A DNA stretch of 64,000 nucleotides, from contig OZ024766.1 in NCBI GenBank assembly GCA_964016885.1, positions 21,390,001 to 21,454,000 on the forward strand, in the 5' to 3' direction. Shown here piece by piece: positions 55,601 to 57,267 of the stretch. Source of the DNA: Eledone cirrhosa (taxonomy: Eukaryota). Within the stretch, counting starts at the first letter, position 1, and the number at the start of each line of letters is the position of its first letter. A program made the position numbers and the translations under genes. The notes beneath the pieces are model-generated. The model was not told the DNA's origin. It worked only from the letters and a program-made list of their open reading frames with translations, and did no database searches.

Positions 55601-56800
55601 CTCACCAGAATGTTGACCTGGATCGGACAGACATCTATTCTGGGGTCGGACAGACAGCTACCCAGCGGGGTGGACTAGATCGGACAGATATCGAGGAGGT
55701 TGGAATAGGTCGGAGAGACAGTCGGGGTGATAGCATGGGCCGGACAGTCAGTGAGGCTGGTGACAGAGATCGGACAGATATCTATTCTGGGGTCGGACAG
55801 ACAGATTTCCAACGAGGTGGCATAGATCGGACAGACATCCAGGCTGGAGACCGATATCGGACAAATACCCACCAGAATGTTGACCTGGGTCGGACAGACA
55901 ACCAGGGTGGTGACATGGATCGGACAGACAGTCGGGGTGGTGTGAGAGGTCGGACAAACACTCAGGGGGGTGACAGAGGTCGGACAGCCACCCGGGGGGG
56001 TGACAGACGTTCCGCAGCTAAGCGAGACGTCGACAAGGATCATAACCAGGATCGAAAGAAGGACGTGCCCAACATCTCCGGGCCCTTGACGGAGACCGGG
56101 GTCCTCCGCCGTCGACTGACAGGCGACGGCGGAGGGAGGGCCGCCCCTCCTCGCGCGGGCCTCGGAAGGGAAGGTGGTGGCGGTGACGGCGGAGAGGGCG
56201 AGGGGGATCGAGGTGACGGCGGTGGCGGCGAGGGGGATCGAGGTGGCGGCGACGTCCCTCCCCTCCCGTCGCGCCCCGGCGGCGCCGTGCCGCCCTACGA
56301 CGCCCAGCGCTTTCTCTCGGCGCGGCAGGCCAACAGGAGTTCCTTTGGCGGGGGCGACGCTGAAGGAAGGGGAGGGGGTGGCGGCTGGGGATGGGGCGAT
56401 GGGGGAGGAGCGGCGGGAGGGGACGGGGAGGGGAGCGAAGGGAACGCTACGGCGCCCCCCGCCGCCGGCGCGGCGCCGTCGGAACCGGGCGCAGGCATCG
56501 TGCAGAGCCCGTCCGGCGCGTGGACCACGACGAGCAAGTCCGACGCGCCCTACGTCATCAGGCTCGGATACCTGACGGGGTCGGAGACGAGGCTGGAGGA
56601 GAGGGAGAGGAGGGGGGGCAGGCACAGACGTGACAGTGGTGGCGGTGGTGGAGGTAGTAGTAGTAGTGGTAGTAGTTGTGGTGGTATTGGAGGTAGTAGT
56701 GGTAGTAGTAGTAGTAGTTGTGGTGGTGGTGGTGGTGGTAGTAGTGGTAGTAGTAGTGGTAGTGGTGGTGGTAGTGGTAGTAGTAGTGGTGGTAGTGGTA

Positions 56801-56846
<46 letters not shown>

Positions 56847-56923
56847 TAGTAGTGGTAGTAGTAGTCGTGGTGGTGGTAGTAGTAGTAGTAGTGGTAGTAG
56901 TAGTAGTGGTAGTAGTAGTGGTG

Positions 56924-56955
<32 letters not shown>

Positions 56956-57267
56956 GGTGGTGGTGGTAGTAGTAGTAGTGGTAGCCGAAGAAGCAAGAGA
57001 AACGGAGGCGAGTACTATCGAAGGCCAGGTCAAGCAATTTCAGGAGCGCTGACCCTCGCTGTGGCCGAAATCAACGGTGACCCGTCCATTCTGCCTGAGC
57101 ACAGACTGGAGTTCCTGCCCCGAGAGACCTACGGCGAAGAGTCGGAGAGCATTCGAAAGACGACCCTGCTTTTAGACGCCAACATTTCAGCTTATATTGG
57201 GCCCCAGGAGACCTGCCTGTATGAGGCACGCATCGCTGCAGTCTTCAATGTCCCTATGCTGTCCTAT
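52618..57267 (+). CDS. Receptor-type guanylyl cyclase (Gyc32E-like), giant first coding exon: signal peptide, repeats, start of ANF-receptor ligand-binding domain
   Basis: 1,550 stop-free codons; hydrophobic N-terminus; IRLGYLTGS...RPGQAISGALTLAVAEIN...ETYGEESESIR...AYIGPQETCLYEARIAAVFNVPMLSY resembles insect Gyc32E as recalled; donor |gtaagt. Confidence 0.82.

Follow-up and report, generated by a model that had tools for sequence, protein, structure and literature searches.

Results

An AGT/GGT microsatellite is coding within the ligand-binding domain of a receptor gene

In the 64,000-nucleotide stretch of Eledone cirrhosa DNA analysed here (contig OZ024766.1, positions 21,390,001 to 21,454,000; hereafter the window), a receptor gene carries a microsatellite of AGT and GGT triplets in the loop that joins strand beta1 to helix alpha1 in its ligand-binding domain. 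Our results support that this tract is coding and lies within the ANF_receptor (Venus-flytrap) domain, and, as judged from the basic motifs beside it and from structure prediction, a furin-nicked, two-chain ectodomain is plausible in Eledone. The features of the gene are collected in Table 1. The tract spans 354 nt and consists of 67 Ser, 46 Gly, 2 Cys, 1 Asp, 1 Ile and 1 Arg, encoded by 66 AGT, 43 GGT and nine other codons, AGT accounting for 66 of the 67 Ser codons, with neither a stop nor a frame shift among the nine. Its first residues, directly after RHRR, are Asp-Ser-Gly, and the motif SSCGG occurs twice, at 56671 and 56713. On recheck, the positions that the initial annotation had given for YVIRLGYLTGS, RHRR, the tract, RRSKR and both SSCGG motifs were all exact, and the listing of open reading frames bore out its description of an open Gly/Ser frame beside a stop-rich one. 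The remaining frame reads as poly-Val; poly-Val and minus-strand ORFs across the tract were dismissed as by-products of the repeat.

Removal of the tract by splicing, named in the initial annotation as a way in which its proposal could fail, was checked and rejected, as neither donor nor acceptor is present. The tract lacks a GTRAG donor as well as a pyrimidine-rich acceptor: the best AG in it is preceded by 7 pyrimidines in 15 bases, as against 13 of 15 at the exon 2 acceptor, a benchmark that was correctly placed, the remaining comparison acceptors being 0-12 bases off. The triplet phase is constant in 11 of 11 bins, and indels amount to 0% in the tract versus 6% in two non-coding CAC-type tracts of the window. 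In three runs of a single sample, DNA contigs agree exactly with the flanks up to 56629 and again from 56994, skipping 56630-56993, the repeat itself, so that the tract length rests on one assembly; these contigs run unspliced into intron 1 and are therefore DNA. The search of sequencing runs that yielded them gave no RNA run of Eledone cirrhosa, and 21 further rows of small share (0.14-0.16) were counted as no evidence. The dependence of the length on one assembly and the empty RNA search, together with the low complexity of the repeat in a repeat-dense genome, speak for the idea that so long a tract reflects a faulty assembly, a private allele or a spliced-out stretch, the true loop being 30-45 residues as in other octopods. 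However, all 118 codons, the nine odd ones included, stay in frame, splice signals are lacking in the tract, its flanks are exact in the DNA contigs and orthologs have Ser runs in the corresponding position, and we hold this explanation to be very unlikely.

Table 1. Features of the Eledone cirrhosa receptor gene, in positions of the window
Feature	Position	Strand	Remarks
First coding exon: signal peptide, repeat-built stalk, start of Venus-flytrap domain	52618..57267	+	4,650 nt, 1,550 aa; GT donor at 57268
Predicted signal peptide	52618..52698	+	about 27 aa, end approximate; best Kyte-Doolittle window, residues 9-19
Twelve 32-aa (96-nt) stalk repeats	53332..54483	+	RTKR in four: 53344, 53440, 54016, 54304
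Remaining stalk: 93-, 120- and 30-nt coding repeats and Gly-rich segment	54484..56493	+	last dibasics 56020 (KR), 56107-56115 (RRR)
Cephalopod-conserved segment ahead of beta1, predicted beta-hairpin and short helix	56494..56550	+	strands 2-4 and 10-12, pLDDT 88-92
Strand beta1 of Venus-flytrap domain (YVIRLGYLTGS)	56551..56583	+	
Left basic flank	56584..56631	+	RERR (56602-56613), RHRR (56620-56631)
AGT/GGT coding microsatellite, 118-aa Gly/Ser tract	56632..56985	+	2 Cys, 18 Ser-Gly dipeptides
Right basic flank, RRSKR (56986-57000) then NGGE	56986..57012	+	strict motif RSKR at 56989-57000
Domain conservation restarts, YYRRPGQAISGAL, helix alpha1 onward	57013..57267	+	Pfam ANF_receptor, E 1.5e-8
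Exon 2, Venus-flytrap domain	57434..57616	+	
Exon 3	58299..58419	+	
Exon 4	58940..59086	+	
Exon 5	62377..62558	+	
Exon 6	63441..63576	+	gene runs on past the window end

The gene is likely the octopus eclosion-hormone receptor

Six GT-AG exons join in phase to give 1,806 codons with no stop, the start Met at 52618 being inferred from a signal-peptide-like hydrophobic segment. The Pfam family PF01094 (ANF_receptor) matches exons 1 and 2, the spliced protein is 91% identical to its O. sinensis ortholog over 341 amino acids, and the part after the loop reaches 94-95% identity to Octopus receptor guanylyl cyclases over 87 amino acids. The transmembrane, kinase-homology and cyclase exons lie outside the window; the 91% identical O. 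sinensis ortholog carries kinase-homology and cyclase domains. The introns hold repeats of their own: a 49-bp unit occurs in intron 4 in two inverted arrays (six copies at 59254-59566 and 52 copies in the opposite orientation at 59690-62236), which could form a long pre-mRNA hairpin, and a 72-bp satellite unit is found once in intron 1 (57340-57410) and nine times in tandem in intron 5 (62743-63397), its copy number being very high as gauged by a summed contig depth of about 3 million at 57344-57399.

The initial annotation had taken insect Gyc32E as its point of comparison. The nearest named fly match is instead CG10738 of D. busckii, which also bears the automatic name 'guanylate cyclase 32E', the likely origin of that label. 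In a quick IQ-TREE tree of 60 ectodomains (O. sinensis as proxy for the Eledone protein, midpoint root, no bootstrap, no verified Gyc32E sequence among its members), Octopus fell among the mollusc orthologs while five Gyc76C-like paralogs split off on a long branch with SH-aLRT 100. CG10738 is the fly eclosion-hormone receptor, EHR (PMC12393706), and EHR, Gyc32E and Gyc76C are described as separate genes (PMC13267572); molluscs are reported to have both EH and EH receptors, and octopus is represented among the ligands listed in the EH supplement (PMC6660194). On these sequence comparisons, the gene is likely an ortholog of CG10738 and not Gyc32E. The receptor has the beta1 and alpha1 motifs and the ANF_receptor domain in common with the EH receptors, namely Drosophila CG10738/EHR, Bactrocera BdmGC-1 and their mollusc and annelid orthologs, whose ectodomains are 40-56% identical to that of the O. 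sinensis ortholog. Within this group the loop is 10-21 residues long, whereas octopods add a Ser-rich insert and a stalk of 800-1,300 residues. BdmGC-1B of Bactrocera is reportedly a form bearing an insert.

The loop is short in relatives and expanded in octopods

To survey the loop, 378 proteins were gathered, of which the 289 with both anchors were scored and the 89 lacking an anchor were left out, the counts including isoforms and fragments. The whole beta1-alpha1 loop comprises 148 residues in Eledone cirrhosa versus 12 in insects; it is 12 residues long in 225 of the 289 homologs and at most 21 in 281. The eight longer loops are that of Eledone, six of 37-43 residues in records of three Octopus species (37 in O. 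sinensis, 39 in O. vulgaris, 43 in O. bimaculoides, all Ser-rich), and one of 37 in record P0204, which was kept in the count and looks like intron read-through. Three cephalopod-like proteins have a 20-residue loop without a basic pair ahead of a conserved YRRP, and the two that were scored are 80% identical in the part after the loop. The drosophilid matches all had one loop type in common. The initial annotation had put the loop of insect Gyc32E at about 10 residues; the insect figure found here is 12, and the protein compared is CG10738.

The Octopus orthologs (CAI9743357.1 of O. vulgaris, XP_036369995.1 of O. sinensis and XP_052833799.1 of O. bimaculoides) are 91-95% identical in the domain and resemble Eledone in having a Ser-rich insert at the same place, RR and KR boundaries, and a repeat-built stalk with a 32-residue register. 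They differ from it in that their Ser run is only about 11-18 residues as against 118, is Gly-poor and contains neither Cys nor a strict furin motif. Since three Octopus species also have the insert, it is an octopod trait older than Eledone cirrhosa; the three are close kin, so this comparison amounts to about two lineages. From the codon usage we infer that the Eledone lineage lengthened the insert through AGT/GGT slippage.

Basic sites border the tract

Besides RHRR and RSKR, we found a third strict motif, RERR, which the initial annotation had lacked. The pair RR stands immediately ahead of the Ser run and KR immediately behind it in four of four octopods, the residues before the run being IYRR in Octopus versus RHRR in Eledone, and those after it KSKR, SSKR, SKRR and RSKR in the four. 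A strict R-X-K/R-R within the loop was found in Eledone only, one of 289 proteins, and in none of the three Octopus species or the three cephalopod-like proteins; Octopus keeps only dibasic pairs, and the nearest it comes to the motif is a single K-X-K-R in O. vulgaris and a minimal RTMR with Arg behind it. K-X-K-R is described as suboptimal for furin, the general convertase motif being K/R-Xn-K/R (PMC6682551). The expectation that both sites would persist in orthologs while the loop varied in length is thus borne out for the RR and KR boundaries and for the varying Ser run but fails for the strict consensus; the absence of the basic sites from close relatives, which would have counted against cleavage, applies to that consensus in three of three Octopus species, while the paired basics remain. 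Given the dibasic-only sites of Octopus, clipping may be specific to Eledone or may need PC1/PC2-type enzymes.

These data bear directly on the possibility that the loop stays intact in the animal and that its basic residues are remnants of a basic loop in a single-chain receptor, possibly with glycosaminoglycan attached to Ser-Gly. Basic pairs are common in such loops, being present in 127 of 278 short homologous ones, many of them followed by Pro, and the strict motifs are missing from the three Octopus orthologs. When the 25 flank residues were shuffled, one strict motif anywhere on each side arose in 10% of shuffles, because the flanks are Arg-rich; both motifs abutting the tract, as found in Eledone, arose in only 0.3%. 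The 18 Ser-Gly dipeptides and the Asp-Ser-Gly at the tract start are in keeping with an uncut, modified chain, such contexts being linked to xylosylation sites, yet the Octopus loops have just 1-2 Ser-Gly pairs; the Asp-Ser that follows RHRR also agrees with furin preferences. Moreover, RR and KR occupy the same boundaries in four of four octopods despite a stalk at about 25% identity, and three strict motifs, two of them abutting the tract, flank a loop predicted to be disordered and exposed. Taken together, we consider an uncut receptor unlikely.

The domain is predicted to fold around a disordered loop

Structure prediction, which the initial annotation had proposed as a check, gave a disordered tract with the domain folded around it. 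The AlphaFold model of the O. sinensis ectodomain, built with 63 sequences, has a pLDDT of 90.4, and its loop falls below 50 only at residues 56-63; its best PDB match is the NPR1 ectodomain (Foldseek E 3.9e-29). In the model of the Eledone exon piece, beta1 and the part after the loop have pLDDT 88-96, whereas 117 residues (53-169), the tract, are below 50, and the three R-X-K/R-R motifs flank this region. The Eledone model superposes on mGlu5 over 105 residues (Z 11.6, rmsd 2.3) and on NPR1 over 98 (Z 10.9, rmsd 2.0; VIA). The fold matches listed are Venus-flytrap domains, with no GAIN or Notch domain among them. The models thus predict a domain that folds around a disordered loop. A short helix is predicted in the left flank in both models, at model residues 33-41 in Eledone. 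The segment just ahead of beta1, in which both models also show a hairpin, is conserved in seven cephalopod-type sequences (Eledone, three Octopus and three cephalopod-like), and the structural alignment reaches into it for class C GPCRs, not for NPR1.

A giant stalk with its own basic sites precedes beta1

Ahead of beta1 lie 1,311 repeat-built residues with no Cys and 21 N-glycosylation motifs. Stalks are also long in Octopus (825-869 residues) and in one cephalopod-like protein (364 residues, Ser/Thr-rich), while in nearly all other full-length homologs beta1 begins about 20-70 residues from the N-terminus; the cephalopod stalk may deserve more notice than the loop. The twelve 32-residue repeats are 28% identical to the O. 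sinensis stalk, and the stalk has drifted to an identity of about 25%. Each of these repeats opens with K-R/I-R/Q-T-K/E-R, a register similar to the KRRTDR-like one of Octopus, and the array resembles a polyprotein of repeated peptides; an ESM Atlas search with the 32-residue repeats gave scores no higher than 0.84. Coding minisatellites of 48/54, 96, 93, 120 and 30 nt all lie within the one 4.65-kb exon. Isoform X2 of O. sinensis (P0003) lacks 373 stalk residues of X1 (P0128), which suggests splicing inside the giant exon, and a local compositional shift is seen at 56098-56550, GC-rich and Gly-rich in Eledone versus an acidic, Glu-rich counterpart in Octopus. The basic sites of the stalk were not enriched over shuffles except for the strict motif (P 0.028), and the last basic pairs stand 147-177 residues ahead of beta1 in Eledone and 65-66 in Octopus. 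Pfam matches of the stalk to Ins_allergen_rp, GlnD_UR_UTase, PP-binding_2 and DUF1702 were rejected as repeat artefacts, no stretch passing alone. Neither Pfam nor structure matching of the receptor gave a GAIN, NRR/Notch or adhesion domain.

The initial annotation had proposed that cleavage at both sites would leave the bulky N-terminal portion attached through a single beta-strand, reminiscent of Notch S1 or GAIN-type heterodimers. Such a mechanical switch, in which a giant N-terminal part on beta1 is shed or pulled off, would fit a stalk of about 1,310 extracellular residues and a cut that leaves beta1 on the N-terminal chain, as well as the long stalks of Octopus and the cephalopod-like protein. 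However, the stalk has no Cys and no credible adhesion domain, and since it has its own basic sites (four RTKR and dibasic pairs), the same enzymes would likely cut it too, leaving a short peptide on beta1 and no tether. Moreover, the predicted hairpin before beta1 would strengthen the contact of that strand, and beta1 is an inner strand of the Venus-flytrap fold, the loss of which would unfold lobe 1. Holding of a large N-terminal part by beta1 is therefore unlikely in view of the stalk sites and the hairpin, and we regard the mechanical switch as highly improbable. In Notch S1/NRR and in the GAIN domain of adhesion GPCRs, the cut leaves a strand of one chain inside a two-chain domain; the likeness of the Eledone receptor to them is weak, as its cut would lie inside a Venus-flytrap domain, the fold matches listed are of that type, and LNR/HD, GAIN and adhesion modules and a conserved cut site are missing.

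Discussion

We give about even chances to the reading that we prefer, that the loop is a tolerated, disordered spacer grown by slippage and clipped in maturation, after which the nicked receptor stays assembled and works normally, the last of these being an assumption. Triplet slippage would lengthen a Ser-rich loop that tolerates insertions; if the chain is cut behind RHRR and again behind RSKR on its way through the secretory pathway, by enzymes that we propose to be furin-type convertases, a peptide of about 123 residues would be freed, much like the C-peptide of proinsulin, while beta1 and the preceding hairpin would remain bound in lobe 1. With the stalk trimmed at its own basic sites, no force would then reach beta1.

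Closer analogies than Notch or GAIN may be the C-peptide of proinsulin and the insert domain of the insulin receptor, in which a flexible spacer of variable length is flanked by basic sites (in proinsulin, RR followed by KR) and is removed or nicked by convertases, and the halves stay together. The insulin-type halves are disulfide-linked, whereas the Eledone receptor has no Cys N-terminal of the first site, so that the link would be non-covalent, and there is no homology. NPR1/GC-A is like the octopus receptor in its fold and, as traced through a Capitella homolog, in its receptor architecture, but shows only 17-19% identity, a short beta1-alpha1 loop and a single chain.

For a regulatory version, the analogy would be with ENaC. 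Here ligand binding or dimer closure would be hindered by the loop, or by the helical, Arg-rich flank beside it, until both cuts are made, so that protease expression would decide where the receptor is active. The post-beta1 loop of the Venus-flytrap fold faces the inter-lobe cleft, as this idea would want, but natriuretic-type receptors bind hormone between subunits and not in the lobe cleft. Both boundary sites are kept in four of four octopods and the left flank (15-16 residues) is partly conserved and predicted to be helical in both models; the strict sites, however, are not conserved. A precedent is given by the inhibitory tracts of ENaC alpha and gamma, which like the Eledone loop are peptides between two basic sites in an ectodomain, but the ENaC peptides bind a defined pocket through a specific sequence (PMC9163703), which is unlikely for the piece excised here, a featureless Gly/Ser run with a length that varies about tenfold and is not conserved. 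We find such gating rather doubtful, and much the same holds for a broader version, distinctly unlikely on our estimate, of an octopod pro-receptor from which the giant stalk is stripped and the C-peptide-like loop excised, only the nicked two-chain form signalling, which would make it a protease-gated receptor guanylyl cyclase.

A literature search that was poor in subscription journals found no furin-split receptor guanylyl cyclase, no loop of the Eledone type and no protease-gated receptor guanylyl cyclase. If excision does gate signalling, protease control would be added to a receptor family for which that search found no such case. In arthropods, annelids and molluscs other than octopods the loop stays at around 12 residues. 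In octopods it has become a place where repeats drive insertion, and its twelvefold growth in one lineage with the gene unbroken is a striking but modest case, which also marks the loop as a naturally tolerant position at which Venus-flytrap receptors could be tagged. Finally, the analysis pinpoints the likely octopus EH receptor, in an animal that does not moult.
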